From an uncultured Candidatus Saccharibacteria bacterium (GTDB lineage: Bacteria > Patescibacteriota > Minisyncoccia > Minisyncoccales > CAZPAG01), in NCBI GenBank assembly GCA_964584545.1, contig CAZPAG010000002.1:1-53017 (forward strand): a stretch of DNA of 53,017 bases. Reading direction: 5' to 3'. Positions 4,588 to 53,017 of this stretch are shown here, in pieces. Numbering within the stretch: the stretch's first letter is position 1; the number at the start of each line of letters is the position of its first letter. The position numbers were made by a program, and so were the translations under genes. The notes below the pieces were generated by a model. The model had not been told where the DNA came from. It saw nothing but the letters and a program-made list of their open reading frames with translations, and did no database searches.

Positions 4588-5247
4588 TTATTTCTCGACC
4601 TTTATTTTTACCCACCTATATTTCTTAAACTGGTCCTTGAAAAATCTGAATCGTTTATATCCTAAAGAAACTAAAATATCTTCAACACCCTTTCTCTGCA
4701 GAGGGTCAATTTCAAGATATATTATACCATTATTTTTCAAAAAATTTCCACCCTCCTTCAAAAGTCTTCTAATGTAAAATAGTCCTTTTTCTCCTCCGAA
4801 TAACGCCCTGCCTGGTTCATATTTTAGGACGGACGGCTGGACCTCCTTTATCCTGTTTCTATCAACGTAAGGAGGATTGGCAAAAATATAGTCATACTTT
4901 CTGCCTTTTAATCCTTTAAACAGGTTTGATTTAATAACCCTGTATCTTGCAGGAGATATTTTGTTTAATTTCAAATTAATTTTTATCTGTTTTATCGCTT
5001 TTTCGTCAATATCAACAAAATCAACAGAGCTTTTTTTAGTTTTGATGTTCTTTAACAGAGAGACTCCTATACATCCAGACCCTGAAAAAACATCCAATAT
5101 TCTTATTGTCCGTCCATCCCCCATCTCTCTTCTGGTTTTCTTCACCCAAAATTCAGTCTCGGCCCTGGGAATAAAAGTTTTTTCTGACAAATCAATCTTG
5201 CAATTCAAAAATCTCGTTCTCCCTCTTTTGTACTCAACCGGAATCAT
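4588..5247 (-). CDS. prmC: HemK/PrmC-type protein N5-glutamine methyltransferase (short form)
   Basis: SAM-binding motif ILDVFSGSGCIG and the NPPY motif in FANPPYVD. It lacks the usual N-terminal helical domain. Confidence 0.7.
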   Translation of the reverse strand: MIPVEYKRGRTRFLNCKIDLSEKTFIPRAETEFWVKKTRREMGDGRTIRILDVFSGSGCIGVSLLKNIKTKKSSVDFVDIDEKAIKQIKINLKLNKISPARYRVIKSNLFKGLKGRKYDYIFANPPYVDRNRIKEVQPSVLKYEPGRALFGGEKGLFYIRRLLKEGGNFLKNNGIIYLEIDPLQRKGVEDILVSLGYKRFRFFKDQFKKYRWVKIKVEK

Positions 5248-5936
5248 ATATTAATTAAATTACTCAAATAATCCTTGACCTTAAGCTGCTCTTTGATGCT
5301 GTTTTCAAGTTCAATAGCCAGAAAAGAAGAAAAATATCTCTCAGGATATTTTTTTAAATAATCTAATTCGGAGAAATTATCATCAAAAGAATGGCTGTCA
5401 TAACGAGAATATCCATTTTCATCAATATGCGGAATCTTTTTAACCGGATTAATGTGGTTGGCAATCACGGGATATTTCTCCAATATTTTCACATTATGTT
5501 CAAAAATGTCCTTTGTTGAGATTCTTGCATTCTCCAAATGGGAGAAATCCAGACATACGCCCCCGAATTCCTTTATTTCTTTTTCGTCTAGAGGGAAATA
5601 CACATTTTCAATCCCTATAATATTACGATATTTGGAAAGGTCGTGTAAAAAAGGATATTCTCTCTTGGTATGGGTGCAAAAAACCTTAGTACCGTAGTTT
5701 TCAACAAAATAATCCAACTCTTCAACGGTCATATCGCTTCTCAGATGAACTAAAGGAATACTTTTGAGGCCTGACCCCCTGATAAGCCTGTAGAATTCCT
5801 TCCGACCTTCTTTATCGAGGCAGGTACAAAAAACAGCAGCTTCTTCTATCCCAAGTTCCCTTATCTCTTCCAGTTTCTTTCTCCAATCAGACCCACTCGT
5901 AACGGTGACTGAAACTAATATTTCTTTCTTTTCCAT
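5244..5936 (-). CDS. hypothetical protein
   Basis: 230-aa ORF with a 4-nt overlap onto prmC. I recognise no motif. Confidence 0.5.
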   Translation of the reverse strand: MEKKEILVSVTVTSGSDWRKKLEEIRELGIEEAAVFCTCLDKEGRKEFYRLIRGSGLKSIPLVHLRSDMTVEELDYFVENYGTKVFCTHTKREYPFLHDLSKYRNIIGIENVYFPLDEKEIKEFGGVCLDFSHLENARISTKDIFEHNVKILEKYPVIANHINPVKKIPHIDENGYSRYDSHSFDDNFSELDYLKKYPERYFSSFLAIELENSIKEQLKVKDYLSNLINI

Positions 5937-8032: not shown

Positions 8033-8509
8033 TTAAATATTTAGTTGCCAGATTGAAAAGTTAAGCAGGGCCGCAAAAGTAACCCAGGTTAAATACGGTA
8101 AAAGCAAATAGGCCGCTGCCCTATCAATTTTACGAAACTGAAGGATGGTCAGCGCTATTGCAAGCCACAAAAATAATATATCCAAGAAAGCTAAAAACGG
8201 GCTGTGGAGGTAGAAAAACAGGAATGACCACTTTACATTCAAAAGAAGCTGGACGATAAAAATTAGCAGTCCTTTCTTCACCTCTCTGTCATTTAAGTCC
8301 TTTTTTAGAATCAGATAGAGAGATATCCCCATCAAAAAGAACAGGGTTATCCAAACAGGAGCGAATATCCAGTTTGGAGGGCTAAAAACAGGCTTTTGGA
8401 GGGTTGTATACCATCCGCGAATAGAAGGGGCGGTGAATACAGAGCCTAGAACCCCGGCTAACTGGCAAAAGATAACAGCGAATAGAAATTTAAAAATATT
8501 GTTTTTCAT
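8033..8509 (-). CDS. tspO: TspO/MBR family tryptophan-rich sensory protein
   Basis: WYTTLQKPVFSPPNWIFAPVWITLFFLMG plus five hydrophobic helices. Confidence 0.85.
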   Translation of the reverse strand: MKNNIFKFLFAVIFCQLAGVLGSVFTAPSIRGWYTTLQKPVFSPPNWIFAPVWITLFFLMGISLYLILKKDLNDREVKKGLLIFIVQLLLNVKWSFLFFYLHSPFLAFLDILFLWLAIALTILQFRKIDRAAAYLLLPYLTWVTFAALLNFSIWQLNI

Positions 8510-8749: not shown

Positions 8750-9128
8750 GTTTTTTAATTCTTCTTTGCTCTAATAATTTTGCCCCTTTCTCGTTAAAAC
8801 CGAAGTGATGGGCTATCTCGTGCCAGACGACATTTCTTACCAAATCCTTAATCTCTCCCTGTGATCTGGCGATACTTTCAATTGATTGCTGAAATATGGT
8901 GATTTTATCAGGCAAATTCCCGCCAAAGCCCTTGCCCCATCTCGTTTGAGGGACTCCCTCGTAAAGCCCCAATAAAACATCGTTATATCTTACCCCAACA
9001 CTTTTCAATTGCACTCTTGTGGGATTATCTTCAACAACAATAGCCACGTTTTCCATGATTTTACGTATTTTTTCAGGTAAATCCCGGATAGCCTCATCAA
9101 CTAGTTTTTCAAAACTTTCCAATTCCAT
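8733..9128 (-). CDS. zincin-like metallopeptidase family protein (DUF1025-like)
   Basis: HEXXH motif in VVWHEIAHHFGF. The start is moved to ATG 9128 (MELESFEKLV). The TTG-started extension in the ORF track translates a repeat element. Confidence 0.7.
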   Translation of the reverse strand: MELESFEKLVDEAIRDLPEKIRKIMENVAIVVEDNPTRVQLKSVGVRYNDVLLGLYEGVPQTRWGKGFGGNLPDKITIFQQSIESIARSQGEIKDLVRNVVWHEIAHHFGFNEKGAKLLEQRRIKKHADKS

Positions 9129-9143
9129 AAATTTAATAAAATT

Positions 9144-9171
9144 TACAGGGTCCCATCTCAATGGGAATCAT
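9144..9171 (-). repeat. family-1 element: GC hairpin plus GGGACCCTG box
   Basis: Minus sense reads ATGATTCCCAT-TGAG-ATGGGACCCTGTAAATTTTATTAAATTT-ATG. It is near-identical in layout to the copy at 45619-45643. Confidence 0.6.
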
Positions 9172-9260
9172 ACTTTGATTATATCATTTAAAAATGAATC
9201 TCCCACGGGCTTGCGCCGCGGTATCTCCTTTTCCCGCTCTCAACAAAATTAATAGTGAAA

Positions 9261-15086: not shown

Positions 15087-15605
15087 TTATTTTGTTTTAC
15101 TTATGGCATTTAACGCCACGATCAGACCTTTAATGTTTCCTTGTAAAACACTTACAAAGTTTGAAACTGGGGCAGAGACCGTCCCTACGAATCTGGCCAG
15201 CAATTCCTTTCTGCCAGGAAGCTTGGCTAATTCAATCATTCTGTCTGTCTCAAAAAACTTGTTCTCTAAAAATCCACCTAAAATTTTAACGTTTTTATTC
15301 TCCTGTGAAAACTGCCAGACGGTTTTTGCCGGAGCTATTTCATCTTTATAACCAAAGACTATGGCTATCTCTCCTGCCATCTTTTTAAAATCAATGTCTA
15401 TCCCCTCTTTTTTGAAAGCTAAACTGAGTAAGGTTTTCTTAGCCACTTTTAAACTATCACCGGCTGCTTTTATCTTCTTCCTTAAATTGGAAAAATCCTT
15501 TACTTTTAGTCCGGTAAAGTCAAAGAAGACCACCGCCTTTTGGCTCTTCATTTTTTCTTTTAAATCCTCTACTATTTCTTGTTTTTGCTGTTTTGTTTGC
15601 GGCAT
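15087..15605 (-). CDS. rplJ: ribosomal protein L10
   Basis: [52 protein letters not shown]. It lies immediately upstream of rplL. Confidence 0.95.
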
Positions 15606-15737: not shown

Positions 15738-15892
15738 CATATTTATGTAAATTAAACAAAAAACGGCTGCTTATGCAGACGAATACAACAAAAAGTATAA
15801 CCTTTTTATTTTATCCTCGGCAGGGCTTACAGAATGCCTGCTGTCTGCAGATGTACTAAGTATATATTCTTTAAATTTTATGTCAAGAGCTG

Positions 15893-22469: not shown

Positions 22470-22631
22470 TTATCTCTTTGATTCCTTATGGATAGTGTGT
22501 TTTTTACAGAATTTGCAGAACTTCTTAAATTCTAACTTCTTGTCTCCCATCTTCTTTGATTTACGGGAAAAATAATTAGCTCTTTTGCATTCCTGACATA
22601 CGATTTTAAGATATGATTTTTTTGTTGCCAT
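22470..22631 (-). CDS. rpmG: ribosomal protein L33
   Basis: MATKKSYLKIVCQECKRANYFSRKSKKMGDKKLEFKKFCKFCKKHTIHKESKR (CxxC...CxxC). The start is moved to ATG 22631. The upstream ORF-track extension translates a repeat element. Confidence 0.9.
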   Translation of the reverse strand: MATKKSYLKIVCQECKRANYFSRKSKKMGDKKLEFKKFCKFCKKHTIHKESKR

Positions 22632-22662
22632 ATTTTTATAATTTTTAATTTTAATTAAAAAC

Positions 22663-22705
22663 TGACAGGGTTCCCGCGCATACATCACATTTGAAGCGCG
22701 GGATG
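22663..22705 (-). repeat. family-1 element: GC hairpin plus GGGAACCCTG box
   Basis: Minus sense reads CATCCCGCGC-16 nt-GCGCGGGAACCCTGTCA, then 30 nt of A/T, then the ATG of rpmG. Confidence 0.6.
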
Positions 22706-22713
22706 TATATATG

Positions 22714-23577: not shown

Positions 23578-23650
23578 GCAAATGTAGTGAGCACCCCGCC
23601 CTCTAAGCATAAGTAAAATAATACATTTAGCATAGAGGGCGGGGTTTCGT
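23578..23650 (-). repeat. family-2 element, miniature (ORF-less) copy
   Basis: Minus sense reads cgaaACCCCGCCCTCTATGC-taaATGTATTATtttacttat-GCTTAGAGGGCGGGGTGCTCACTACATTTGC, then the ATG of trmD. Confidence 0.8.
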
Positions 23651-26777: not shown

Positions 26778-27050
26778 GCGAATGTAATGAGCACCCCGCC
26801 CTCTAAGCTATAATTCTTTTCTTGAGGGCACGCCAGGCGCTCCCATAATATTTTAATTTTCTTTCTCTCGACCTTGCTAATTTCTCTAAGGAATAAGATT
26901 CGTAATAAACTATTTGAAATTTATTCTTAGATTTATGTTGTTTTATTCTTTTTACTAAGTCTTTGGTGCATCCAATATAAAATTCATTATTCCTTTCCAG
27001 TTTTAAAATGTAGACATAATACATAGCTGCATAGAGGGCGGGGGTTTTCG
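26778..27050 (-). mobile_element. family-2 element, full-length copy: GIY-YIG ORF framed by inverted repeats
   Basis: Arms gcaccccgccctctaagc (26791-26808) and gcatagagggcggggg (27029-44). The same flanks occur in the 73-nt copy at 23578-23650. Confidence 0.7.
26803..27024 (-). CDS. GIY-YIG nuclease family protein (73 aa)
   Basis: MYYVYILKLERNNEFYIGCTKDLVKRIKQH...RERKLK carries the GIY / YIG / R..H / E pattern. The start is moved to ATG 27024. The TAG stop lies inside the inverted repeat. Confidence 0.8.
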   Translation of the reverse strand: MYYVYILKLERNNEFYIGCTKDLVKRIKQHKSKNKFQIVYYESYSLEKLARSRERKLKYYGSAWRALKKRIIA

Positions 27051-27067
27051 CCTGTCGGCTCAAAATT

Positions 27068-27757: not shown

Positions 27758-27796
27758 AATTTGAACACCAGTGAAAATTATATAGCCCTAACGAAG

Positions 27797-28231
27797 CTAT
27801 GGTTTATATTGTTTTTTCTCAATTTCCTTGTATACCGTCCCTAAAACTCCGTTTATGAACTTACCAGAGCTTTCCCCTCCGAAAGACTTTCCCAGTTCAA
27901 TAGCTTCGTTAATGGCTACTTTAGGAGGTACGGCTTCTTTATCTCCGTATATCAATTCGTACAGCCCTATTCTTAAAACATTCCTATCAACAATGCTTAT
28001 CTGGTCTAAGGGCCATTCGGGGGCCGACGTCTCAATAATCTTGTCTATGGATAAAAGATGTTCTACCGTGCCTGTCACCAGCTGCCAGACAAAACTCGGA
28101 TCTTCCAGACCGGGACCGAACTCCTTAAGGTTCTTCTCTACGGTCTTTTCTAAATCAACTTTTTTGCCGGAGAAATCCCATTCATATAGGCTTTGCATTG
28201 CGATTGAACGCGATAAATGCCTTGATGACAT
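27797..28231 (-). CDS. nusB: transcription antitermination factor NusB
   Basis: [18 protein letters not shown]...[12 protein letters not shown]...[26 protein letters not shown]. Confidence 0.9.
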
Positions 28232-32600: not shown

Positions 32601-32851
32601 CAAGAGTAAGAGCAGGCGGAATAATAGCCGGAATCAAAAAAATAATCACCAAAAAGGGCAGACCGATGATGTTTATGAATCTTGAGGATTTAACCGGCCG
32701 AACCGAAGTGGTCGTCTTCCCTTCAATCATTGAAAAGAATCCTGTCATATTCCAGGAAAATAAAATTGTATTTGTCGTAGGCAGAGTCGATCACCGCGAC
32801 AATGTTGCGAAAATAATCTGCGACGAAATAGAAGAAATAAAAGAAATTTGA
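29678..32851 (+). CDS. dnaE: DNA polymerase III alpha subunit
   Basis: PHP domain FTHLHVHSHYSLLDG, palm GPGRGSASGSLASYVLGIT..DP and LPDIDLDF, FRPGPM, and a C-terminal OB fold. Confidence 0.95.
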   Translation: MPKFTHLHVHSHYSLLDGLPKIDELLDYVQKLGMDSVAVTDHGVLYGAVELYKKAKAKGIKPIFGCEVYMALESMTQERPNIDQKRYHLVLLVKNEEGYKNLVKMVTKAHLEGFYYKPRIDEDLLRQHSKGLIGLSACIQGKIPQLIIAKRLKDAEELAKKYQEIFGKDNFYLEIQSHPNIKEQKNVNDALISISKKTGIPLVATCDTHYLKPDDAEAQDILMLINTGADPNDPERLTMKKDDFSLKSPEEMERLFKNTPEAIKNTQKIKDSCNFEFELKKTKLPYFPVPDKKTADDYLRELCYLRLGERYPKKEKEIIDRLEFELSVIKQTGFAGYFLIVQDFVRWAKDNRIVVGPGRGSASGSLASYVLGITNVDPLKYNLLFERFLNPERVAGLPDIDLDFTDRRRDEVINYVANKYGRDKVAQIITFGTMAARAAVRDVGRAMSMPYSFCDKLAKMIPMQFTLDQTLSQVKEFKDVYKQDENAKKLIDLARKLEGCARHASTHACGVVISKTPLDEIVPLQHPTQGDENIVTQYEMHSIEDLGLLKMDFLGLKNLTIIEDTLARVYVVRGEKIDIEKLPQDDKDTYKLLQEGKTAGVFQLEGGGMTRYLMELKPTEFEDIIAMVALFRPGPMELIPEYIARKHKKKRVEYLHPKLKTILENTYGIMIYQEQLMQIARELGGFSMGEADILRKAVGKKIKELLLEQEEKLVAGMAKNEIKKEVAEKIWEWILPFASYGFNRSHAAAYATIAYQTAYLKTHYSVEFMASLLTSEKNDVERIGFLIGECKKMGIEVLPPDVNESLQNFTVVPKENKIRFGLTAIKNVGANIVEAIVHERKANGPYKSLTDFISRINSKDFNKKSFESMVKSGVFDKLGERNQLLQNMEKILEFNREHQKTKSNGQKSLFAETVSFNNNEIRLDVSPPISKIERLSWEKELLGLFVTSHPLEDYKKIFERKVSPLSALPRAMSGTRVRAGGIIAGIKKIITKKGRPMMFMNLEDLTGRTEVVVFPSIIEKNPVIFQENKIVFVVGRVDHRDNVAKIICDEIEEIKEI

Positions 32852-32857
32852 AAAAAT

Positions 32858-32903
32858 ATGCATCCCGCGCGATTAAGATGATTTATGCGCGGGAGCCCTG
32901 TCT
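32858..32903 (+). repeat. family-1 element: GC hairpin plus GGGAGCCCTG box
   Basis: ATGCATCCCGCGC-16 nt-GCGCGGGAGCCCTGTCT, then 26 nt of A/T, then the ATG of thrS. Confidence 0.6.
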
Positions 32904-32926
32904 ATTTGATTTTATTTCATAAAATT

Positions 32927-34666
32927 ATGAAAGAACAAAATAAAAACACTGTGGATTTAAATATTTTACGTCATTCTCTCTCTCATATAATGGCCCATGC
33001 CGTCCAGGATTTATACCCTGGCACAAAATTCGGAATAGGGCCTGCTATTGAAAACGGTTTTTACTATGACTTCGGACTGGACAAAAACTTTACCCCCGAA
33101 GACCTGCCCAAAATAGAATCGAAAATGCGGGAATTAATAAGAAAGGATCTCCCATTTGAAAAAGAAGTTATCCCAAAAGAAAAGGCTCAGGAAATATTTA
33201 AAAACCAGCCATATAAATTAGAACTTATAAAAGAACTGCCTGAAAAAGAGATAACGGTTTATAAAAGCGGAAATTTCTTAGATTTGTGCGGCGGACCGCA
33301 CATAAAATCTACAAAAGAGATCCCTACTGACGCCTTTAAGCTTCAAAAAACTGCCGGCGCCTACTGGAGAGGGTCGGAAAAGAATCCTATGCTCCAAAGG
33401 ATTTACGGTTTGGCTTTTGAAAACAAAAAGGCTTTGGAAGATTATCTCAAGCTCCAGCAGGAAGCAGAAAAAAGAGACCATAGAATTTTGGGTCAAAAAT
33501 TAGACTTATTCTTTATAGATGAGGAAGTCGGGGCAGGCCTCCCTATTTGGCAACACAACGGAACAATTCTCAGGAAAGTTATAACGGACTATTTGTACGA
33601 AGAACTTTCCCGCCAAAAATATCTCTGGATAATCAGCCCTCACATCGGAAGACTTCAACTCTGGAAAACCTCCGGCCACTGGGAAAATTATCGGGAAAAC
33701 ATGTATTCCCCAATCAAGATAGAAGAGGAAGAATATATGATAAAACCCATGAATTGCCCTTTCCATGTCAAGGTCTACAAAACGAAAATAAGGAGCTATA
33801 GAGACCTGCCGATAAAATATGCCGAATTCGGAACTGTTTATCGCTACGAAAGGTCGGGAACCTTACATGGCCTGACAAGAGTCAGGGGTTTCACCCAAGA
33901 TGACGCCCATATCATTTGCCGAACAAAACAACTTCAGGAAGAAGTGGAAAAACTTTTAAAGACCGGATTTAAAATCATGAAAGCTTTCGGATTTAAGGAT
34001 TACGATATTTATCTTTCCACCAGGCCGGAAAAATATGCCGGTACGCTACAGGGATGGGAAAAAGCCACGAATACTCTGAAGAGTATCTTAGAAAAGTTAA
34101 AATTGGACTTCCAAGAAGATCAGGGCGGTGGTGTTTTCTATGGGCCTAAAATAGATATAAAGATAAAAGACTCTCTGGGCAGGCCTTGGCAGTGTACGAC
34201 AATCCAAGTAGATTTTAATCTGCCGGATAAATTCAAAATGGAATACGTGAACGAAAAAGGAGAAAAAGAAAAACCTTTGATGATTCACCGCGCCCTGATA
34301 GGTTCGTTGGAAAGATTCATCGGAGTTTTATTGGAGCACTACGCCGGAAATCTGCCTTTTTGGATTTCCCCGGTTCAAATTCAGGTAATCCCGATAAGTA
34401 TTAAACATAAAAAATATGCTAAAGAGATAGCCGATAAACTTACCGAAAATAGCTTACGTTGCGAATTAAAGGACAATAACGAAACTATTTCAAAGAAAAT
34501 CAGGGAAGGAGAAATGCAAAAAATCCCCTATTTACTGGTAGTCGGAGATAAGGAAAAGAAGGCTAAGGCGGTAGCCGTAAGAAAAAGAGGCAAAGGGGAC
34601 CTGGGAATGATGAAATTGAACAAATTCATAGAAAAGGTTAAAATAGAGTCAGGTCGAAAATCCTAA
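32927..34666 (+). CDS. thrS: threonyl-tRNA synthetase lacking the N-terminal TGS domain
   Basis: Starts at the editing domain (RHSLSHIMAHAV, GFYYDF, TAGAYWRG). Class II core RDHRILGQKLDLF, FGTVYRYERSG and GFTQDDAHIIC. The start is moved to ATG 32927. Confidence 0.95.
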   Translation: MKEQNKNTVDLNILRHSLSHIMAHAVQDLYPGTKFGIGPAIENGFYYDFGLDKNFTPEDLPKIESKMRELIRKDLPFEKEVIPKEKAQEIFKNQPYKLELIKELPEKEITVYKSGNFLDLCGGPHIKSTKEIPTDAFKLQKTAGAYWRGSEKNPMLQRIYGLAFENKKALEDYLKLQQEAEKRDHRILGQKLDLFFIDEEVGAGLPIWQHNGTILRKVITDYLYEELSRQKYLWIISPHIGRLQLWKTSGHWENYRENMYSPIKIEEEEYMIKPMNCPFHVKVYKTKIRSYRDLPIKYAEFGTVYRYERSGTLHGLTRVRGFTQDDAHIICRTKQLQEEVEKLLKTGFKIMKAFGFKDYDIYLSTRPEKYAGTLQGWEKATNTLKSILEKLKLDFQEDQGGGVFYGPKIDIKIKDSLGRPWQCTTIQVDFNLPDKFKMEYVNEKGEKEKPLMIHRALIGSLERFIGVLLEHYAGNLPFWISPVQIQVIPISIKHKKYAKEIADKLTENSLRCELKDNNETISKKIREGEMQKIPYLLVVGDKEKKAKAVAVRKRGKGDLGMMKLNKFIEKVKIESGRKS

Positions 34667-41003: not shown

Positions 41004-41032
41004 ATTTTTATTTCTGAGTGATAGCGAAGAAA

Positions 41033-41068
41033 CAAGGTTCTTAAGAGCGAAGCGACGAATGGTTCTTA
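41033..41068 (-). repeat. family-3 short repeat (AAGGTTCT / GGTTCTTA) upstream of gatB
   Basis: Plus strand reads caaggttcttaagagcgaagcgacgaatggttctta. Confidence 0.4.
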
Positions 41069-41758
41069 TTCAACTTTTCTCCATTCTTCTTCTGGTTCTA
41101 CCTCTTCCCCCATCACCTCTTTCATAATTTCCACTCCAGAGCTGGTACCAATAATATCAGCTCCGGCCTCAAGCATCATTTTCAAATCGTTTAAACTCCT
41201 TATTAAGCCCGCTGCCTTCACCAGAATCCCTGGGGCCGATTCTCTCATAATTTTCACGTGTTTTGCCTTCTCTCTTAATTCAGAATGGTCCAGAGGATCT
41301 CCCAGCGTGGCTGTTTTCACGCAAATAGCCCCTGCCCTCTTCACCATTTCAGAGGCTTTTTTAATTTCTTCATCGGCCAAATACCCCGACCCGATAATCA
41401 CCTTTGCAGGTAAAATCTTGCAGATTTCTTCCAAATCTTTAGAAACTTCCTCACATTTTCCGTTCTTAAAATCATCTATCTTCATTACCACGTCTATCTC
41501 TTCAGACCCGTCTTTTTTGGCCCGTTCTGCCATTCTAAGCCTTTCCTCATGGGAACTAGCTCCCGTAGGTTCATCTATTAAGGTCGTCACTTTAACGCCG
41601 CTGCCTTCTAACAATTTCTTAGCCAACCTGGCGTCTTTCGGAAAAACGCAAAATCCCCGGAATCCGTATTTTTTCGCTTCCTCGCAAGCCATTCTTAGCT
41701 CTTCTTCGCTGGAGTCTTTCTTTAAAAATGTCTGATCGATTATCTCAGCGTAATTCAT
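41066..41758 (-). CDS. deoC: DeoC/LacD-family aldolase (deoxyribose-phosphate aldolase-like)
   Basis: IIDQTFLK..., VTTLIDEPTG, ICVKTAT, and GADIIGTSSG. The start is moved to ATG 41758. Confidence 0.7.
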   Translation of the reverse strand: MNYAEIIDQTFLKKDSSEEELRMACEEAKKYGFRGFCVFPKDARLAKKLLEGSGVKVTTLIDEPTGASSHEERLRMAERAKKDGSEEIDVVMKIDDFKNGKCEEVSKDLEEICKILPAKVIIGSGYLADEEIKKASEMVKRAGAICVKTATLGDPLDHSELREKAKHVKIMRESAPGILVKAAGLIRSLNDLKMMLEAGADIIGTSSGVEIMKEVMGEEVEPEEEWRKVE

Positions 41759-41772
41759 AATATTATGAAAAT

Positions 41773-41863
41773 TGACAGGGCTCCCGCGCATATATGCCGA
41801 AAGCATTCAAGGTTCTCGCCGAAGGAGAGGTTCTTATATTACATTAATTGCACGGGATGCATA
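41773..41863 (-). repeat. family-1 element with a 60-nt insertion in the hairpin loop
   Basis: Minus sense reads ATGCATCCCGTGC-[60 nt containing a family-3 repeat]-GCGCGGGAGCCCTGTCAATTTTCATAATATT-ATG. Confidence 0.6.
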
Positions 41864-41934
41864 ATTTAATTCTAACAAATTATATTATAAATAAAAAGAA
41901 GCCCTTAGGCTTCACAATTTTATATATTATAAAT

Positions 41935-43486: not shown

Positions 43487-44308
43487 TTATATCCCTATAT
43501 CCGCCTTAATGGACGGATAAGGGTCATACCCTTCAAGTTTAAAGTCTTCGTAATCAAAATCGAAGATATTTTTTATTTTCGGGTTAAGATTCATTTTCGG
43601 CAAGGATTTGGGAACGCGCTCTAACTGAGTCTTTGCCTGCTCTATATGATTTAAATAAATATGAGCATCGGACAAGGTATGAACGAATTCATGAGATTTT
43701 AAACCTGTAACCTGGGCTGCCATCATCAACAGCAAAGAATAGGAAGCGATATTGAAAGGCACCCCTAAAAATATATCGCAGCTCCTCTGGAAAAGGTGAA
43801 GAGACAATTTTCCTTGGGCGTGGAAAAACTTGAAAAAACAATGACAGGGAGCGACAAAAACCTTGTCCACGTCTTCAGGATCCCAGGAAGAAACAACCAA
43901 GCGGCGCGAATCTGGGTTTCTTTTAACGTCTTCTATTACGTCTGATATCTGATCGATAACTCCTCCGTCTCTTTTCTTCCACCTACGCCATTTCTCCCCG
44001 TAAATAGGCCCTAATTCCCCTGGAGGCAGGTCATATCTGGCGGTAGCCTCAGGAGTAGCCCATTCATCCCAAATAGTGACTCCGTGGTCCTGGAGGTATT
44101 TTACGTTGGTATCTCCCCTTAAAAACCATAAAAGCTCGTAAATAATCGATTTCAAAGGCATTTTCTTGGTTGTAAGCAATGGGAAACCATCATCCATCTT
44201 AAACCTCATCTGGTAGCCGCAAACGGCAATATTCCCTATTCCTTGGGGATCGCCTTTTCTCTCCCCATTTTCTAAAACGTGTTTTAATAAATCCAGATAT
44301 TGTTTCAT
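43487..44308 (-). CDS. thyA: thymidylate synthase (ThyA)
   Basis: [32 protein letters not shown], and the catalytic PCH in [10 protein letters not shown]. Confidence 0.95.
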
Positions 44309-45176: not shown

Positions 45177-45599
45177 TTATTCAACGGTAACGCCCATATT
45201 TCTGGCGGTACCCTCGATAATTTTCATTGCCGCCTCGATATTGTCAGCGTTCAAATCAGACATTTTCTTTAAGGCTATTTCTTTAATCTGAGCCTTGGTA
45301 ATTTTACCCACTTTTGTCTTATTAGGCTCGCCTGACCCCTTCTCAATGCCGATAGTCTTCTTGATAAGCTCTGAAGCTGGCGGCTGCTTTGTTGTGAAGG
45401 TATACGTCCTGTCTTCATAAACCGTAACCACAACCGGGATGGTAAACCCTACCATGTCTTTAGTGACTGCATTAAACTTTTGACAAAACTCGGACATATT
45501 TAAACCGTGAGGAGCCAATGCCGGTCCCACTGGCGGAGCCGGGGTTGCTGCCCCAGCGGATATTTGTAATTTTACGACTGCTTTTATTTTTTTTGCCAT
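45177..45599 (-). CDS. rplK: ribosomal protein L11
   Basis: [34 protein letters not shown]. Confidence 0.95.
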
Positions 45600-45618
45600 A
45601 AATTTTTATTAAAAATTT

Positions 45619-45643
45619 CCAGGGTCCCGCTATCGGGAATCAT
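45619..45643 (-). repeat. family-1 element: hairpin plus GGGACCCTG box
   Basis: Minus sense reads ATGATTCCCG-ATAG-CGGGACCCTGGAAATTTTTAATAAAAATTT-ATG(rplK). Confidence 0.6.
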
Positions 45644-45647
45644 ATTA

Positions 45648-46193
45648 TTAAATCTTTTTTATTTGCAATGAATCAAGCTCTACCGGAGTGTCCCTGCCAA
45701 ACATATTGACTAAAACCTTTATTCTGCCTTTTTCCTCGTCAATTTCAGAGACTTTGCCGTCAAAATCCTTGAACGGGCCGTCGGTGATCTTGACCAAATC
45801 CCCGATCTGAACTTCAATTTTGTACTGCGGAGCCTCAACCCCCATTCTCTTCATCAAGCTGTTGATCTCTCCTTCTGAAACAGGGACAGGAGTGGTTCCG
45901 GCCCCGACAAACCCGGTAACGTTAGGAGTGTTCCTGACAACATACCAGGAGTCGTCCGTAACTATCATTTCCACCAAAACATAGCCCGGATAGATTTTTT
46001 CTTCGGTGGTTTTTCTCTTCCCGTCTCTTATCTTAATCTTTTTTTCCTTCGGCACAATGACATTGAATATCTTGTCATCCATTCCCAAAGACTCGATACG
46101 CTGCTTCAAGTTCTTGGCAACGGCATCCTCATACCCCGAATAAGTATGGATAACATACCAATGTTTTTCCTGGGACAGTTGTTGTTTTGGCAT
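45648..46193 (-). CDS. nusG: transcription termination/antitermination factor NusG
   Basis: HWYVIHTYSGYEDAV (NGN) and the KOW motif GDLVKITDGPFKDFDGKVSEI. Confidence 0.95.
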   Translation of the reverse strand: MPKQQLSQEKHWYVIHTYSGYEDAVAKNLKQRIESLGMDDKIFNVIVPKEKKIKIRDGKRKTTEEKIYPGYVLVEMIVTDDSWYVVRNTPNVTGFVGAGTTPVPVSEGEINSLMKRMGVEAPQYKIEVQIGDLVKITDGPFKDFDGKVSEIDEEKGRIKVLVNMFGRDTPVELDSLQIKKI

Positions 46194-46607: not shown

Positions 46608-49600
46608 TCAAATATCTAAATTTTTGGCCTTCTTGGCGTAAGTCTGGATAAACTTCTTTCTGGGAAAAACCTCGTCTCCCATCAGAACATCAAATATCCT
46701 GTCAGCTTCCTTGGCGTTATCAATATTAACCTGCAACAAAATCCTATTCTGGGGATTCATTGTCGTATCCCATAGTTGTTCCGGATTCATCTCTCCCAAA
46801 CCTTTATACCTCTGTATGGAGGTCCCGAAAGACCTTTTCATGGACTTTAAAACCGAATCTTTCTGATCTTCGGTGTAAGCGTATTTGATCTCTTTCCCCG
46901 ACTGTATTCTGTATAAAGGAGGCTGGGCAATATATAAACAACCCGCTTCAATAATGGGCTGGAAATAGCGATAAAACAGAGTTAATAGCAATGTCCTGAT
47001 GTGGTTCCCGTCGCTGTCTGCATCAGACATTATGACTATGCGATGATACCTTAGCTTGTCCAAATTGAAATCGCTGGCCACAGCCGTTCCCAAAGCAATA
47101 ATCAAAGATTTAATTTCTTTTGAAGCAAGCATTTTATCCAAGCGTGCCCGCTCAACATTCAATATCTTTCCCCTCAAAGGCAGTATAGCCTGGAATCTCC
47201 TGTCGCGCGCTCCTTTCGCGCTATTATGCACAAACACGCCTGCCGCTAAGGCAAAATTATGCGTCCCTTCAACCTCAATATCGTAAACATCAGCTCTCTT
47301 TTTTAATCTTACTATCTTCTTTATTTTATGGTTATAATTTGAGACGGCCTGTTCTAATTCTTCTTTACTGCCATTGAAAAAACGCTGACTAATGGTACTA
47401 TATCTCAAAACACTTTTATCTTTTGAGGTCATTCTCTCTTGATTATATTCCCCCTCATCCACTCTACCGTAGCTGTCGAAAATCTTCTTCATTAATTTTA
47501 AAGCCTTTTCCTTATACGTTTGATTGTATGTTGCTTTTCTTTCTTCCCTAAATGCCCGAGTCCACTGCTCTCTGGTTTTTTGGCTTCTCCACGCTAGCAA
47601 TTCTTGGTTCTTCCATTCGAGTTTTGCCTTCAAAGCCAATTTCTCTTTTGCTTCCGGATGTTCTCTAAAGTAATTTCGGGCCCTTTCTGCTTGTTTATTC
47701 CTGTTTGCCCCATCAGACCAATATTTCTTCTGATTTTCGTATAAAATTTTAATATTTTTCTCGCGATAATCCTTATTCTTCCGATAAAACTCAAAGAATT
47801 TCTGAGTCATATATTCCTTATATTCTTTATTCTCCCATTGCTTCTTCGCTCTTTCGCTTAGCATTTTCCGCATTTCTGGTTTCAGCATGGAATTTCTAAT
47901 TTTTTCTCTAAATTCCTTGGATTGTCTTATTTTTCTTAACTTCTCCTTTATCTCCGGCCTAGACATAAGTTGGCTTATCAACCTGCTATGCAATTTTCTA
48001 TGCTCTTTGGAATCCATCCTTATTATATTGTCAGGATGGTTATTAAGCTTATTTAGATCAGAATGGTGAATCGCCTGCCCCTCTTTTTTCGCATATTTTC
48101 TTTTCTCAATATTATATCCGTCCGCTAAAAGATGACTAAATATATATTGATATTTTTTAGGGTCAAACACCATTTCATATCCTTTAATTGTGATTCCTCC
48201 GCCTATTTCTGAAAATTTACGATATAACGGATTCAAAGAATCTTTAACTGTTAATTCCTCAGCCGCCTTATAATCTCCGCTTCGTAACATAAACTTGTGG
48301 TCCGGAGTGCAGAGTATTTCCTTTCTATTGTCAAGAATAATTTTAATTACTTCTGTTTTTCTCTTGGTCAGTCGTGGACTCCTAATATGTCCTATTCCAA
48401 TAAAACCATCCTCTTTGATGGTATAGCAATAATTTTTCTTACCTATTTTATCCTCCTCTATCAACTCTCTGAAAGTCAAATTCCTCCCGTCTATTAAAGC
48501 GACTTCCGTATCTCCGGTAAAACAGCCTCCGGCCGATTCTCCCTCCACAATATATAATTCTGATTCTTCCGGTTTATTCGAAGAGCAGTCTGCCAGTTTG
48601 CCCGGCAAAGCTAATCCATCCAATATCCCCTTTCTTAAAACGGTTTCTCTGGCTGATTTGGCAGCCACTCTCGCTTTCTGAGAAATAATACATTTTTCAA
48701 TAATGGCTTTCGCGTCCTGAGGGTTCCTTTCCAAAAAGTCTGCCAAAGCCTCTGAGACAACCGCTTCCACCGCAGGCTTAGCTTCCTGGTTACCCAGCTT
48801 TGCCTTTGTCTGCCCCTCAAACTGAGGTTCCCGTATTTTCACAGACACTACCGAGGTTAAGCCTTCCCTGATATCCTCTCCGCTCAAGTTTTCATCGTTT
48901 CCCCTTATATATCCGTTCTTCTTTGCAAAATCGTTAAATGTTCTTGTTAAAGCCGTCCTGAACCCTGTCAAATGGGTTCCTCCTTCCCCGGTATATATAT
49001 TATTGGCGAAACTCTCTTCATAACACTCGTACTCCTCGGTGTATTGAAAAGCTCCTTCAACCAAAATCCCGTCCTTTTCCGCAGTTCCATAAAAAACATT
49101 GGGATGTCTGGGGGCTGACCCGCGAGTCAGATATTTAACGTAGGAGTTGATCCCTCCTTCGAAATAAAAGGAGTAGGATTTAGTCGCTTTCTCGGTCTGA
49201 TCAATAATAGTTATTCTTGTTCCTTTTGTAAGATAGGCCTGCTGGCGAAGATGATTCAAAACCTTTTTTAAATCAAATCTGATTTCCTTGAAAATTTCCG
49301 TATCTGGCTCAAAAATAATGGTGGTTCCCGTTTTCTTACACTTTCCGTCTTTCTTTACTTTGGTTTTAGGCTTCCCTTTTGAATATTCCTGGGTATATAA
49401 AAATCCGTCCCGGCACACTTCAGCTTTCATCCAGATGGACAAAGCGCAAACCACAGAAACTCCTACCCCGTGAAGACCTCCCGAAACCTTATAGGCTTCC
49501 CCTCCGAACTTTCCTCCGGCATGCAGGGTAGTTAATACCGTTTCCAAGGCTGACTTTTTGGTTTGTTTATGAATATCCACCGGGATTCCTCTACCGTCAT

Positions 49601-49841
49601 CTGTAACCTTTACCCTGTTGTTAGGCAACAAAACAACCTCAATATTTTTTGCGTAACCTCCCATCGCCTCATCCAAAGAGTTGTCCACCACCTCCCAAAT
49701 CAAATGGTGAACTCCCTCGGGACCGGTTGAGCCGATATACATAGCCGGTCTTTTCCTGACCGGGTCTAATCCTTCCAATACATAAATATCTTTTGCCGTA
49801 TACTCCCCTTCTGTTTTTTGCTGTTTTGATTTCTTTGACAT
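46608..49841 (-). CDS. gyrB: DNA gyrase subunit B interrupted by an intein
   Basis: GLDPVRKRPAMYIG, GLHGVG, EGESAGG | intein | SAKGARDRRFQAILPLRGKILNVE, and IMSDADSDGNHI. ATG 49841 is preferred over the TTG at 49880. Confidence 0.95.
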   Translation of the reverse strand: MSKKSKQQKTEGEYTAKDIYVLEGLDPVRKRPAMYIGSTGPEGVHHLIWEVVDNSLDEAMGGYAKNIEVVLLPNNRVKVTDDGRGIPVDIHKQTKKSALETVLTTLHAGGKFGGEAYKVSGGLHGVGVSVVCALSIWMKAEVCRDGFLYTQEYSKGKPKTKVKKDGKCKKTGTTIIFEPDTEIFKEIRFDLKKVLNHLRQQAYLTKGTRITIIDQTEKATKSYSFYFEGGINSYVKYLTRGSAPRHPNVFYGTAEKDGILVEGAFQYTEEYECYEESFANNIYTGEGGTHLTGFRTALTRTFNDFAKKNGYIRGNDENLSGEDIREGLTSVVSVKIREPQFEGQTKAKLGNQEAKPAVEAVVSEALADFLERNPQDAKAIIEKCIISQKARVAAKSARETVLRKGILDGLALPGKLADCSSNKPEESELYIVEGESAGGCFTGDTEVALIDGRNLTFRELIEEDKIGKKNYCYTIKEDGFIGIGHIRSPRLTKRKTEVIKIILDNRKEILCTPDHKFMLRSGDYKAAEELTVKDSLNPLYRKFSEIGGGITIKGYEMVFDPKKYQYIFSHLLADGYNIEKRKYAKKEGQAIHHSDLNKLNNHPDNIIRMDSKEHRKLHSRLISQLMSRPEIKEKLRKIRQSKEFREKIRNSMLKPEMRKMLSERAKKQWENKEYKEYMTQKFFEFYRKNKDYREKNIKILYENQKKYWSDGANRNKQAERARNYFREHPEAKEKLALKAKLEWKNQELLAWRSQKTREQWTRAFREERKATYNQTYKEKALKLMKKIFDSYGRVDEGEYNQERMTSKDKSVLRYSTISQRFFNGSKEELEQAVSNYNHKIKKIVRLKKRADVYDIEVEGTHNFALAAGVFVHNSAKGARDRRFQAILPLRGKILNVERARLDKMLASKEIKSLIIALGTAVASDFNLDKLRYHRIVIMSDADSDGNHIRTLLLTLFYRYFQPIIEAGCLYIAQPPLYRIQSGKEIKYAYTEDQKDSVLKSMKRSFGTSIQRYKGLGEMNPEQLWDTTMNPQNRILLQVNIDNAKEADRIFDVLMGDEVFPRKKFIQTYAKKAKNLDI
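47223..48524 (-). mobile_element. GyrB intein (434 aa) with HNH endonuclease and NUMOD-like repeats
   Basis: Block A CFTGDTEVALIDG, block B CTPDH, HNH IHHSDLNKLNNHPDNIIRMDSKEHRKLH, block F VYDIEVEGTHNFALAAG, block G VFVHN with +1 Ser. Confidence 0.9.
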
Positions 49842-49888
49842 AATTTGTAAAATTTTTGTAAGCGTATTTTTATTTATCAATAAAAATT

Positions 49889-49916
49889 TACAGGGTCTCC
49901 GCTGAAAGCGGGAATT
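49889..49916 (-). repeat. family-1 element (divergent): hairpin plus GGAGACCCTG box
   Basis: Minus sense reads TTCCCGC-TTTCA-GCGGAGACCCTGTAAATTTTTA. It overlaps the pheT stop and lies 48 nt upstream of the gyrB ATG. Confidence 0.5.
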
Positions 49917-51960
49917 ACTGTTTTCTTACTTGCCACTCCGGATTTTCCTCCAGAGCTTTAATTATTTTATTCTGCAATGAATCTATCTCTTGAGAAGATA
50001 GAGTTTTGTCTTCGGACTGAAATATAATATGAAAAGCCAAATTTTTCTTTCCTTCCTCAATGGCTTCTCCTTCATAAATATCGAAAAGATCGACATCTTT
50101 TACCAGATTGCCTCCGGCCCTATCAATCTTTCTTAAAACCTCTTCCACCTTAGTGAAGCGCGGTATCAAAACTGCGATATCCCTGACAGCCGCTGGGAAA
50201 CGGGAAACCGGCCTGTACTCGCTTTCTTCCGAAGCTAAGCCGGATAATTTTCCGAAATCCAGATCAAAAACGGCTATTTTCTTTTCAACCTTGAAGCTAT
50301 TGGCAACCCGAGAAGAAATCTCTCCTAAAAATCCTATCTCTTCCCTACCGACTTTAATCTCAGCGCATTTCTTCAGGTGCCAAAGGCAGGACTTTGACTC
50401 TTCTGGCGTAGGATTATACTCGTTATACCAAATGTCGCTGATACACAACTTGTTCAAAAGAGAATCTATAACTCCTTTTGTCTGATAAAATGAGTCTCCG
50501 GTTAATACTCCTGCAAGCATTATTTTTTCAGACGGCTTTTGATGCTTCTTAGTTGCGGATTGTCTGAAAACCTTTCCGAGCTCAAAGATATTGATTTCCT
50601 GGAAATTCTTTTGGTTATTAGCTATATTCTTTAATAAATTAGGAATCAGGCTCGGCCTGAAATATTGGCAGTCAGAGCTCAATGGGTTCTCCAACTCAAC
50701 CAATTCTCCTTTGCCGTAGTTTAAATTCTCCGCATCTTTCTCGGAAATAAAAGAATAGTTATATACTTCGTTAAAACCCATTTCTTTCAAAATATCTTTT
50801 GTCTTGTCTTCCCAGAAAATATTAAGATTTCTCTTCGGAGGAATCAATGAGGCTAACGGAAAAACTGTCGGAATCTTTTGATAGCCGAAAACTCTGCCGA
50901 TATCTTCTATCAAATCTTCCTGTGTCAAAACATCCAATCTCCTTGTCGGTACTTCTACATTCAGGATTTTTGATCCGGAAACTTTAAATCCCAATCTTTC
51001 TAAAATATTTTTAACCTCCTTCTCAGGGATCAAAACTCCGAGCAAATTCTTAACATAATCTAAATCCAATTTTATTTTAATAGGTAAGGCCTTTCTGGGA
51101 TAAATATCAATCTTACCCTTTAAAACCTTGCCTTTAGCAATTTTCTGTATCAGAAAAGCAGCTCTGTTAATGGCTATTTCCGTCAGGTTAGGATCAACTC
51201 CGTGCTCAAACCTCAAAGAAGCGTCCGTCTTCAAATCTATACTTTTGGAGCTGGCTCGTACGGTCTTTGGATTGAAATTAGCCGATTCCAAAACCACGGT
51301 ATCAGTTTTTTCATCAATTTCGGGAAGCTTTCCCCCTTTGATGCCGGCTATGGCTACCGGTTTTTCCGCATCGGCAATCACCAATACCTCTTTGTCTAAA
51401 TCATACTTTTCGCTGTCCAAAGTGACGATCCTTTCTCCCTTTTTAGCGAACCTGACAACTATTTTTTTACCCTCCAATTTATCCCCGTCAAATGTATGCA
51501 GGGGCTGACCTGTTTCCAGCATCACATAATTTGCGATATCAACAATATTATTAATAGGCCTTAGACCGCAAACCTTTAACGCCTTCCTGATATGCTGGGG
51601 TGAAGGGCCGACTTTAACTCCTGTAACGACCCTGGCCGTGTATCTCCGACAATCACTAGGATTTTTTACCTCAACCTTAACGAAATCTTTAGCTTTCAGC
51701 TCTTTATCCTCCTCTATTTTAAAAACCGGCTCTAAAAGCTTGGAATTTGTTATTGCCGCTATTTCCCTGGCTACCCCGACATGAGAAAAACAGTCTGCTG
51801 ATCTGTTCGGCCTTACGTCAATATCCAAAGAAAAATCTTTCCCCTCCCTTTTTAGATCCTCCACTTCGGCAAAATGCATAGTCAAAACCTCTGCCAGCTT
51901 TTCCGGTTTCAACAACTTTTTCTTGAAAAAAGATTGTAGCCAGTTATAGGAAAAAATCAT
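49915..51960 (-). CDS. pheT: phenylalanyl-tRNA synthetase beta subunit (short form without the N-terminal OB tRNA-binding domain)
   Basis: MIFSYNWLQSF..., DIDVRPNRSADCFSHVGVAREIAA, B3/4 and B5 regions, and a C-terminal FDX-ACB-like domain. Confidence 0.9.
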   Translation of the reverse strand: MIFSYNWLQSFFKKKLLKPEKLAEVLTMHFAEVEDLKREGKDFSLDIDVRPNRSADCFSHVGVAREIAAITNSKLLEPVFKIEEDKELKAKDFVKVEVKNPSDCRRYTARVVTGVKVGPSPQHIRKALKVCGLRPINNIVDIANYVMLETGQPLHTFDGDKLEGKKIVVRFAKKGERIVTLDSEKYDLDKEVLVIADAEKPVAIAGIKGGKLPEIDEKTDTVVLESANFNPKTVRASSKSIDLKTDASLRFEHGVDPNLTEIAINRAAFLIQKIAKGKVLKGKIDIYPRKALPIKIKLDLDYVKNLLGVLIPEKEVKNILERLGFKVSGSKILNVEVPTRRLDVLTQEDLIEDIGRVFGYQKIPTVFPLASLIPPKRNLNIFWEDKTKDILKEMGFNEVYNYSFISEKDAENLNYGKGELVELENPLSSDCQYFRPSLIPNLLKNIANNQKNFQEINIFELGKVFRQSATKKHQKPSEKIMLAGVLTGDSFYQTKGVIDSLLNKLCISDIWYNEYNPTPEESKSCLWHLKKCAEIKVGREEIGFLGEISSRVANSFKVEKKIAVFDLDFGKLSGLASEESEYRPVSRFPAAVRDIAVLIPRFTKVEEVLRKIDRAGGNLVKDVDLFDIYEGEAIEEGKKNLAFHIIFQSEDKTLSSQEIDSLQNKIIKALEENPEWQVRKQ

Positions 51961-52969: not shown

Positions 52970-52974
52970 AGAAT

Positions 52975-53017
52975 CAAGGTTTTTACCGAAAGCAAGGTTC
53001 TTGCCGTAGGCAAGGTT
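52975..53017 (-). repeat. family-3 repeat: CAAGGTT at an exact 18-nt period, three units, running off the window
   Basis: Plus strand reads caaggtttttaccgaaag / caaggttcttgccgtagg / caaggtt at 52975, 52993 and 53011, immediately upstream of pheS. Confidence 0.55.

Follow-up and report, generated by a model that had tools for sequence, protein, structure and literature searches.

The stretch of DNA analysed here (hereafter the window: the 53,017 nt of contig CAZPAG010000002.1, from an uncultured Candidatus Saccharibacteria bacterium, G+C ~40%) carries six copies of a hairpin element, each situated just upstream of a start codon. Based on their sequences and on comparison with related loci, these copies probably belong to a clade-specific, short, dispersed palindromic repeat family, itself probably mobile, that sits on start codons in one clade of Parcubacteria/Patescibacteria. 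An earlier note had described the six copies in front of the genes for a metallopeptidase, rpmG, thrS, deoC, rplK and gyrB, and direct reading of the sequence confirms each of them at its position and in the sense of the downstream gene. The layout proposed there matches the sequence at 6/6 sites, with corrections to the A/T tract, the gyrB copy and the covariation of the stem that are given below. Every copy lies in the spacer between two co-directional genes and points the same way as they do, at distances from CCCTG to ATG of 17, 17, 20, 26, 34 and 49 nt. The idea that the copies might be a dispersed repeat resembling repetitive extragenic palindromic (REP) sequences is supported by absence in relatives, presence/absence polymorphism, tandem units, a nested insert and homologous loops.

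The copies are more numerous than chance would provide. GGGANCCCTG has three exact matches in the window versus 0.40 expected, and CCCTGKMWWTTTT, with up to one mismatch, has 10 matches versus 3.4 expected, a number reached by 0/100 shuffles; the six copies account for 6/10 of these matches. As to the host, the L11 and ThrS proteins of the window group with Parcubacteria/Patescibacteria. The best species-representative genome for L11 is 78% identical, and the named matches of ThrS are Nealsonbacteria/Parcubacteria at ~70% identity. The genome from which the window derives was also found in lake metagenomes from ENA and JGI; samples ERZ27248937 and JGI 3300028191 contain the clade.

Absence from orthologous junctions and filled and empty alleles

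In relatives of the window the same gene pairs are nearly in contact (other genomes, contigs and loci are designated by L numbers). The nusG/rplK spacer is 2-20 nt and devoid of a hairpin in ~25 genomes, versus 48 nt in the window; the pheT/gyrB spacer is 0-25 nt in nine genomes, versus ~75 nt; and between dnaE and thrS the closest ThrS relatives (72-73% identity) have 4 nt or a 4-nt overlap, versus 75 nt. The earlier note had proposed to look at whether the position is conserved in orthologous loci; the element is absent from all three of these junctions in relatives. Similarly, a covariance model of the element (R1, see below) gave no significant match in ~300 kb of loci from 17 relatives, and a regular-expression search of L259-261 returned no family member. 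The peptide MRGSPV, which the element would encode in front of thrS, occurs in none of the N-termini of ThrS homologues, the closest of which are 73% identical. At the thrS site the order is the dnaE TGA, 6 nt, an ATG (32858), 69 nt of element ending in ATG (32927), and the rest of thrS. By comparison with relatives, the flanking ATG therefore occupies the ancestral start position.

The clearest case of polymorphism is aspS in L227 and L250, whose flanks are 88% identical and which differ by a clean 69-nt indel exactly at the start codon. The empty allele (L250) reads ...cgataATTTTATGgaaagag, and the filled allele (L227) reads ...cgataATTTTATG[CATCCC...GTTCAAAATTATG]gaaagag, or in a shorter rendering ATTTTATG[CATCCC...AAAATTATG]GAAAGAG. 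The block starts with CATCCCGCG and ends with TTCAAAATTATG; it has no terminal inverted repeats (TIRs), the inverted repeat being internal. Partial loss is seen between L212 and L199, where the 45-nt hairpin part is gone. As empty alleles of the same genes exist, the element is dispensable for expression, which contradicts an obligatory signal for translation or processing, one of the roles that had been envisaged.

Three further observations concern individual loci. At galU, comparison of L229 with L222 shows that the original ATG has been removed by a 9-nt deletion and that the element-borne ATG is now the start. A Logan contig (L005:1-520, compared with window 45597-45650) has an rplK that is 100% identical, whereas the gene upstream of it encodes an unrelated membrane protein; the join falls within the A/U hairpin, with identity beginning at TTTAATAAAAATTTATG, and reflects either rearrangement at the repeat or an assembly chimera. 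A thrS orthologue that had been assumed in L168 was dropped, as tblastn gave no confirmation.

Anatomy of a unit

A unit consists, from 5' to 3', of TATG, (C/A)(A/T), a TCCC-stem-loop-GGGA hairpin, (N)CCCTG(T/G)(C/A)AATTT, an A/T hairpin and AAAT TATG. It is ~45-70 nt long and non-coding. Directly 5' of the GC stem, (T)ATG followed by two bases (ATGCA or ATGAT) is present in ~30/34 copies. TATG is found at both ends of nearly all copies, and TATA at both ends of the rpmG copy. The linker between the two hairpins, (N)CCCUG(U/G)(C/A), which contains the CCCTG box, is predicted to be single-stranded.

What had been described as an A/T-only tract is, according to folding, a second hairpin of 8-10 bp made up of A and U only. 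Its 3' arm stops 0-2 nt before the AUG, or on it, and the AAATTAT seen before start codons is this arm, which pairs with the CAATTT after the box. In 34 copies the sequences of the A/U hairpins differ while pairing is kept (mean z -1.09 versus shuffles, six copies below -1.64), and the hairpins are thermodynamically weak (-1 to -7 kcal/mol).

Coordinates of the six copies are given in the table. The rpmG copy starts 8 nt past tRNA-Thr, and the hairpin of the gyrB copy begins 1 nt past the pheT stop (49917-49915). The loop insertion reported for the deoC copy is real and is a nested piece of a different small repeat (AGAACC..CTTCGG), ~45 nt long and at roughly 41836-41791. The gyrB copy belongs to a divergent subfamily (GGAGACCCTG, with a mismatched stem) and is missed by the long-variant model R1.

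Table. Copies of the element in the window and associated features. Identities of the flanking genes were confirmed.
Feature	Position	Strand	Upstream / downstream gene	Details and basis
thrS copy, whole unit, long variant	32858..32929	+	dnaE / thrS	old ATG, GC hairpin, box, A/U hairpin, real ATG; covariance model R1, 79.5 bits
thrS copy, 5' flanking ATG at ancestral thrS start position	32858..32860	+		6 nt after dnaE stop (32849-32851); compared with L259 (TAA + 4 nt + ATG) and L260/L261 (overlap)
thrS copy, GC hairpin	32863..32894	+		TCCCGCGCG / TGCGCGGGA, 14-nt loop; fold -21.1 kcal/mol, z = -2.84; alignment; pair counts
thrS copy, linker, predicted single-stranded	32895..32906	+		box (G)CCCTG (32896-32900), then TCTATT; motif matches
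thrS copy, A/U-only hairpin	32907..32927	+		9 bp, loop UUC; pairing extends to the A of the start codon; folding
Real thrS start codon, rebuilt at element 3' end	32927..32929	+		NCBIfam thrS alignment from residue 15; homologue N-termini
rpmG copy, long variant	22629..22708	-	tRNA-Thr / rpmG	5' flank ATA 22708-22706, GC hairpin 22703-22672, box 22670-22666, A/U hairpin 22663-22640, ATG 22631-22629; R1 68.2 bits
deoC copy, long variant	41756..41862	-	folA / deoC	old ATG 41862-41860, GC hairpin 41857-41782, box 41780-41776, ATG 41758-41756; R1 63.8 bits
rplK copy, short variant	45597..45643	-	nusG / rplK	old ATG 45643-45641 (4 nt after nusG stop), hairpin 45638-45625, box 45624-45620, A/U hairpin 45618-45600, ATG 45599-45597; R1 20.3 bits
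Zincin_1 peptidase copy, short variant	9126..9171	-	hypothetical / Zincin_1 peptidase	old ATG 9171-9169, hairpin 9166-9151 (TCCCAT/ATGGGA), box 9150-9146, A/U hairpin 9146-9127, ATG 9128-9126; R1 18.7 bits
gyrB copy, divergent GGAG subfamily	49839..49918	-	pheT / gyrB	hairpin 49913-49896 with C.A mismatch, box 49895-49891, A/U hairpin 49887-49866, ATG 49841-49839; folding, sister copies
Extended -10-like box, deoC copy	41869..41877	-		TGTTAGAAT (TGtTAGAAT), 6 nt upstream of old ATG; downstream of folA terminator-like hairpin (41913-41898)
Extended -10 box, perfect, peptidase copy	9178..9186	-		TGATATAAT (TGaTATAAT), 6 nt upstream of old ATG

Further copies and subfamilies

Metagenome contigs were scanned with a gapped pattern, and chance matches in GC-rich contigs were dropped by context, which left a clean set in contigs of 36-43% G+C. 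The covariance model R1 was built from 20 long variants. Relaxed scans and R1 recovered the same set, plus extra copies in the flanks. In total there are at least ~30 non-redundant sites, in AT-rich contigs of several metagenomes and from the same clade.

The 20 long variants align over 58 columns. Both the stem and the loop (GATTAAnGTAWTWTAT) are homologous, and the long variants are thus related by descent. Short variants have stems of 5-6 bp and loops of 3-4 nt. A third group, the GGAG subfamily (ATTCCCGC..GCGGAG(N)CCCT(G/A)T), includes the gyrB copy and has sister copies in L160, L212, L227 and L250. Tandem units occur in L229 (long + short + short, with a 48-nt period), L222 and L242. The 48-nt units of L229 (5161-5260) lie in frame upstream of galU, and gene callers could read the peptide MKKIMHPAGGNPGNFF there two or three times.

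Viral contigs gave 0 matches with an 18-mer, and looser patterns gave only GC-rich chance matches. A search of Rfam, also proposed in the earlier note, produced no family that matches the element, even at E<=1: with release 15 (gathering score or E<=1) there was nothing at the six sites, and the hits were limited to tRNAs, an L10 leader close to threshold and a snoRNA match due to chance. No description of repeats of this kind in Patescibacteria was found in the searchable literature.

Placement and transcription context

At 29/30 non-redundant sites, among the matches listed, a same-strand open reading frame (ORF) begins 10-137 nt after the box, and the distances from box to start cluster at 10-13, 17-20 and 24-27 nt. 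Copies scattered without regard to gene starts or orientation, which would have indicated a plain REP-like repeat, are therefore not what is seen, and the family is not a plain REP. From their N-terminal sequences we take the downstream genes to be those for L27, L33, L35, L11, ThrS, AspRS, TrpRS, PNPase, NusA, GalU, RNase H, RecJ, a PilM-like protein, membrane proteins and an integrase. The placement before core genes, as originally proposed, thus holds for some sites, but the downstream genes are not solely core genes. In several contigs (L194/L236, L247, L250, L147) copies lie between divergent genes, and the element therefore belongs with the downstream gene; copies between convergent genes were absent from the matches listed. 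The one antisense copy (L179/L253) is located between frr and rseP, at a TTATG on the other strand.

The GC hairpin lies only a few nucleotides past the stops of dnaE, nusG and pheT and past tRNA-Thr, and from 8-10 nt beyond the stem the sequence is T-rich. These two features would suit an intrinsic terminator of the upstream gene or a stabiliser of its 3' end, yet this reading is highly improbable. The stem has no adjoining U-tract, and a terminator scan flags only a weak alternative 5-bp G.U hairpin there, not the main stems. The copies between divergent genes have no co-directional upstream gene, and among the matches listed no copy lies between convergent genes. Furthermore, upstream of the deoC copy folA has a terminator-like hairpin of its own, and the element splits pairs of genes that in relatives overlap or are almost in contact.

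Where genuine intergenic space is present, good promoter-like sequences are found just 5' of the element. In addition to the two extended -10 boxes of the window (see table), TTGACA-17-TAACAT lies 8-10 nt upstream of the flanking ATG in L194 and L247, and TATAAT lies 7 nt before it in L242. This geometry predicts a transcript 5' end at or beside the old ATG, and hence a start of the leaderless type before insertion; the GC stem would then begin ~6 nt from the predicted mRNA 5' end.

The location of these boxes also bears on the proposal that the element is itself a promoter, or associated with one, in which the downstream gene would be driven from CTGTCA, taken as a -35-like box, and AAATTAT, taken as a -10-like one. 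AAATTAT does follow CCCTG at 22-23 nt in ~ten copies, and the box reads TTGACAGGG on the opposite strand. However, at rplK, deoC and the peptidase gene no more than 17-20 nt separate the box from the ATG, and at other sites 10-13 nt, so that a -35, a -10 and a transcription start cannot fit, and over all sites the spacing to the ATG spans 10-137 nt. AAATTAT forms the 3' arm of the A/U hairpin, the element has canonical -35/-10 pairs or extended -10 boxes immediately on its 5' side, and a promoter scanner finds no consistent promoter within copies. The promoter proposal thus fails, and we give it next to no credence. Two specific versions were tried and rejected: the box as -35 (CTGTCA, or TTGACA on the other strand) with AAATTAT or TATGAT as -10 has inconsistent spacings, and a leaderless promoter for the new ATG lacks a -10-like hexamer at -12..-7 of the real start codons.

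The downstream genes had been said to lack Shine-Dalgarno (SD) sequences. The low use of SD sequences is real but genome-wide, and not special to genes that bear the element: an SD-like 4-mer at -4..-18 is present in only 8/54 window genes. The commonest start context is T-ATG (30/55 window genes). Hexamers resembling a -10 box end 6-9 nt before the ATG in 17/54 genes versus ~10 expected (for example 8033-8509, 5244-5936 and 43487-44308), which hints at frequent leaderless mRNAs in this genome. RNase III is encoded by the window's genome.

Two further candidates for a function in translation were rejected. A conserved upstream peptide starting at the old ATG would stop after 4 to >30 codons, at positions that are not conserved. 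A split ribosome-binding site, in which an SD-like GGGAG in the 3' arm would be brought near the AUG by the A/U hairpin, has this arm locked in a 9-bp stem, and short variants do not have GGGAG.

Conservation and a possible RNA role

The stem had been reported to vary while pairing is kept. This applies between subfamilies (TCCCAT/ATGGGA, TCCCGT/ACGGGA) and not within the long variants. Pairing of the stem is 96% in the 20 long variants, which show 1 compensatory pair, a result equalled by 207/500 shuffles; the 96% reflects sequence identity, and covariation in this group does not rise above that of shuffles. A comparison across subfamilies gives 4 pair changes that are compensatory, at stem positions 5-7 (position 5, GC to AT; position 6, CG to TA; position 7, GC to AT), and ~9 that are disruptive. 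The constancy of the box was upheld, CCCTRT being present in ~10 copies that were found without requiring it.

Several points weigh against a mobile repeat. Closely related genomes provide just a single clean pair of filled and empty alleles. The direct repeats in any one copy (median 4 nt, TATG) do not exceed in length those found between copies; with no demonstrable copy-specific target duplication, insertion is not distinguished from recombination or deletion. A transposase or autonomous partner was not found: phmmer with the IS608 TnpA against ORFs of >=60 aa in 1.5 Mb, a small sample, yielded no match below E = 0.1. The pattern used to retrieve most copies requires the box, and only ~10 copies came from searches that did not require it. 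The loop is far less conserved than the stems, the box and the flanking ATG. Finally, the rpmA promoter and element are 92% identical between L194 and L247, the coding sequence is ~78% identical, and DNA further upstream cannot be aligned. Some host-level constraint on the element is plausible on this basis, although the element is dispensable at other genes.

The last points are what a selected cis-acting RNA module would lead one to expect. Such a module, composed of the GC stem-loop at or close to the 5' end, the single-stranded CCCUGU linker and the A/U stem-loop beside the AUG, might be an mRNA 5'-stabiliser, an intercistronic processing landmark, or a standby or initiation platform for ribosomes at genes without SD sequences, and copies would have spread because they are useful. 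Consistent with this, 29/30 of the matches listed are sense and start-adjacent, several sites have a predicted transcription start at the element's 5' edge, conservation of stems, box and flanking ATG contrasts with drifting loops, the box persists as CCCTRT even where it was not required, and the L194/L247 leader is better conserved than the coding sequence behind it. The A/U hairpins keep their pairing across differing sequences (see above), RNase III is encoded, and SD sequences are few. On the other hand, orthologous genes work without the element, both in a close genome (aspS of L250) and in all relatives compared; tandem arrays and a nested insert are the behaviour of a repeat; the distance to the AUG spans 10-137 nt; the GC stem is without covariation within the long subfamily; the A/U hairpins are weak; and one copy is antisense. 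On balance we regard a selected RNA module as somewhat unlikely to be the explanation of the family. A non-essential RNA role of the repeat, in 5' protection or processing, is possible.

The invariance of TCCC/GGGA and of the box, together with the palindromic GGGACCC, might also point to a site in double-stranded DNA or a cruciform, with the GGGA(N)CCC palindrome being recognised by a clade-specific regulator, nucleoid protein or recombinase. The spacing of the arms, from 3 to ~60 nt, and the optional N break a fixed dimer geometry, no candidate protein was found, and orientation is tied to transcription. A DNA site is thus very unlikely as a separate explanation; it would merge with the mobile repeat if the binder were the mobilising enzyme.

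Comparison with known repeats

REP sequences and the bacterial interspersed mosaic elements (BIMEs) that they form in Proteobacteria, mobilised by the REP-associated tyrosine transposase (RAYT, an HUH Y1 transposase), are likewise imperfect palindromes, rich in GC and 20-40 nt short, that occur in many copies, strictly outside genes, and are co-transcribed with their neighbours; they form mosaic or tandem clusters that include small motifs and have asymmetric conserved bases by the foot of the stem. The family described here shares the short GC-rich palindrome and the many extragenic copies (six in 53 kb, all intergenic, and at least ~30 sites in the clade). In place of GT(A/G)G at the 5' foot of the stem it has ATG(C/A)(A/T), in ~30/34 copies. 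It also differs in location, REP being found mainly in 3' regions or between convergent genes and this element 5' of genes, on the start codon; in its second, A/T hairpin and replacement start context; and in that no RAYT was found within the 1.5 Mb searched.

The palindrome-associated transposable elements (PATEs) derived from IS200/IS605 likewise lack TIRs and have a hairpin set back from the ends. They also resemble the present family in its apparent oriented insertion 3' of a fixed short motif (TATG), with no demonstrable copy-specific duplication and nearly all of the copies listed in one orientation. They differ in having matched left and right hairpins, in contrast to the one strong hairpin seen here, where in addition no TnpA or TnpB partner was seen. 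A target that looks identical to the right end (here TATG) is not known to be the rule among IS200/IS605-type members. As regards miniature inverted-repeat transposable elements (MITEs) of the TIR/DDE type, the 69-nt block shows presence/absence between related genomes (L227 versus L250) but no TIRs.

The Correia/NEMIS and NIME/dRS3 repeats of Neisseria are also small, often near gene starts and co-transcribed, form hairpins in mRNA and vary in presence between strains; their mRNA hairpins are processed by RNase III. In form, dRS3 (ATTCCC-N8-GGGAAT) resembles the short variant (ATTCCC..GGGA). Correia elements are, however, 100-155 bp long, with 26-bp TIRs and a TA duplication, and can bring promoters. 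The present element has 45-70 nt and no TIRs, brings no promoter and lands on the start codon. The 5'-terminal stabilisers (the E. coli ompA leader; B. subtilis aprE and SP82-type) are comparable in having a stable stem-loop near the mRNA 5' end, predicted in the case of the element, followed by an unstructured or weakly structured A/U-rich initiation region. These are single-gene leaders, unlike the element, which is a dispersed repeat.

A possible course of insertion

Gain or loss affects a unit of the repeat family as a whole block, which sits at the T-ATG of a start codon and is oriented with the gene. As comparison with relatives shows, the former start codon is stranded at the 5' edge, while the 3' edge supplies an equivalent A/T-rich context and ATG. 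The gene stays expressible because start context and ATG are rebuilt in this way. An oriented TATG target in an A/T-rich context, together with purging of intragenic insertions, might result in the observed bias towards sense orientation and start proximity, T-ATG being the commonest start context. Downstream of a promoter or within an operon the unit would be transcribed as an mRNA 5' end or an intercistronic spacer, folding into a GC stem-loop that is stable and, behind it, an A/U stem-loop that is weak, and might at most modulate the gene by protecting the 5' end or as a landmark for processing. Judging by the general properties of these families, movement as a single strand (HUH, IS200/IS605/REP-like) would, speculatively, fit the asymmetric ends, the internal hairpin and the identical TATG borders better than a MITE of the TIR/DDE type.

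More tentatively, the family might be non-autonomous mobile DNA that homes to start codons. Putative machinery would recognise T|ATG where the context is A/T-rich, insert the unit in a single orientation and restore the start codon, and leaderless or overlapping (coupled) starts would be converted to starts with 5' stem-loop leaders. These, together with sister modules bordered by TTATG, might have been co-opted by the host clade as exchangeable leader cassettes, with which mRNA stability is tuned or neighbours are uncoupled. This scheme as a whole is unlikely. The sister modules, which are bordered by the same TTATG, differ in copy number between genomes, which is the behaviour of a repeat. 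If targeting of start codons is true, it would represent an unusual "safe-haven" strategy for a mobile element, and a natural experiment in which a structured leader is added to genes without SD sequences or with leaderless mRNAs.

Genomes of the Candidate Phyla Radiation are thought to be streamlined, yet this clade tolerates dozens of hairpin repeats between genes that in relatives overlap or lie almost in contact, and it carries at least three further small repeat families (see below).

Consequences for annotation

Since the element places an ATG-containing sequence before the real starts, it generates false N-termini. The extension MRGSPV that had been pointed out is indeed present in both the thrS and deoC ORFs of the ORF track. 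Public calls are extended as well: L33 (rpmG) is called with 71 aa (window 22470-22685; L258) versus 53 aa in reality, DeoC with 246 aa (window 41066-41806; L001) versus 230 aa, and ThrS with 586 aa from a TTG (window 32906-34666; P0001) versus 579 aa. An exact look-up of the 53-aa L33 returned no record, the public call being the 71-aa extended form. Masking of the family would improve the annotation of metagenome-assembled genomes of this clade.

Other repeats and neighbouring features

A second repeat family has 12-bp arms (CCCCGCCCTCTA / TAGAGGGCGGGG) and is located in the window at 23594-23644 and at 26794-26804 and 27033-27043. Upstream of trmD the arms fold as a tight hairpin with GTGCTCAYTACATTYGCATG behind it. 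More widely spaced arms surround a small ORF (26803-27063) beside rpsP, and the syntenic position in L259 is occupied by a GIY-YIG gene. The motif is also found upstream of rplK in L012; as this is a Staskawiczbacteria genome, the second family is more widely spread than the start-codon repeat.

The third small repeat, AGAACC(T/C)TG with a CTTCGG-type hairpin, is found at 41791-41836 (nested in the deoC copy), 41005-41060 and 52970-53017, and stands singly upstream of gatB and pheS. Its 41-nt unit forms an 8-unit tandem array of 327 nt in L161, where L194, which is 83% identical, has a single unit; the comparison of the two gives eight more copies in L161.

Module B, of 37 nt, reads CCTCTAGGGATAATTTCNAACTTCGTT..AAATTATG. 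In other genomes (L199, L210, L211, L250) it occurs as tandem units, each ending in TTATG, and L250 has three extra copies compared with L227. In the window, the tail of module B, TTTTCACTGGTGTTCAAATTATG, is present without a GC hairpin upstream of the RNase III gene rnc (27758-27810, minus strand).

A near-threshold ribosomal protein L10 leader (RF00557, 42.2 bits versus a gathering score of 44) lies at 15749-15868 on the minus strand, upstream of an ORF at 15087-15605. The gyrB gene itself (46608-49841, minus strand) contains an intein at about residues 452-899 of its 1090-aa ORF, with N- and C-terminal splicing motifs detected, and the gyrB genes of several relatives appear shorter.

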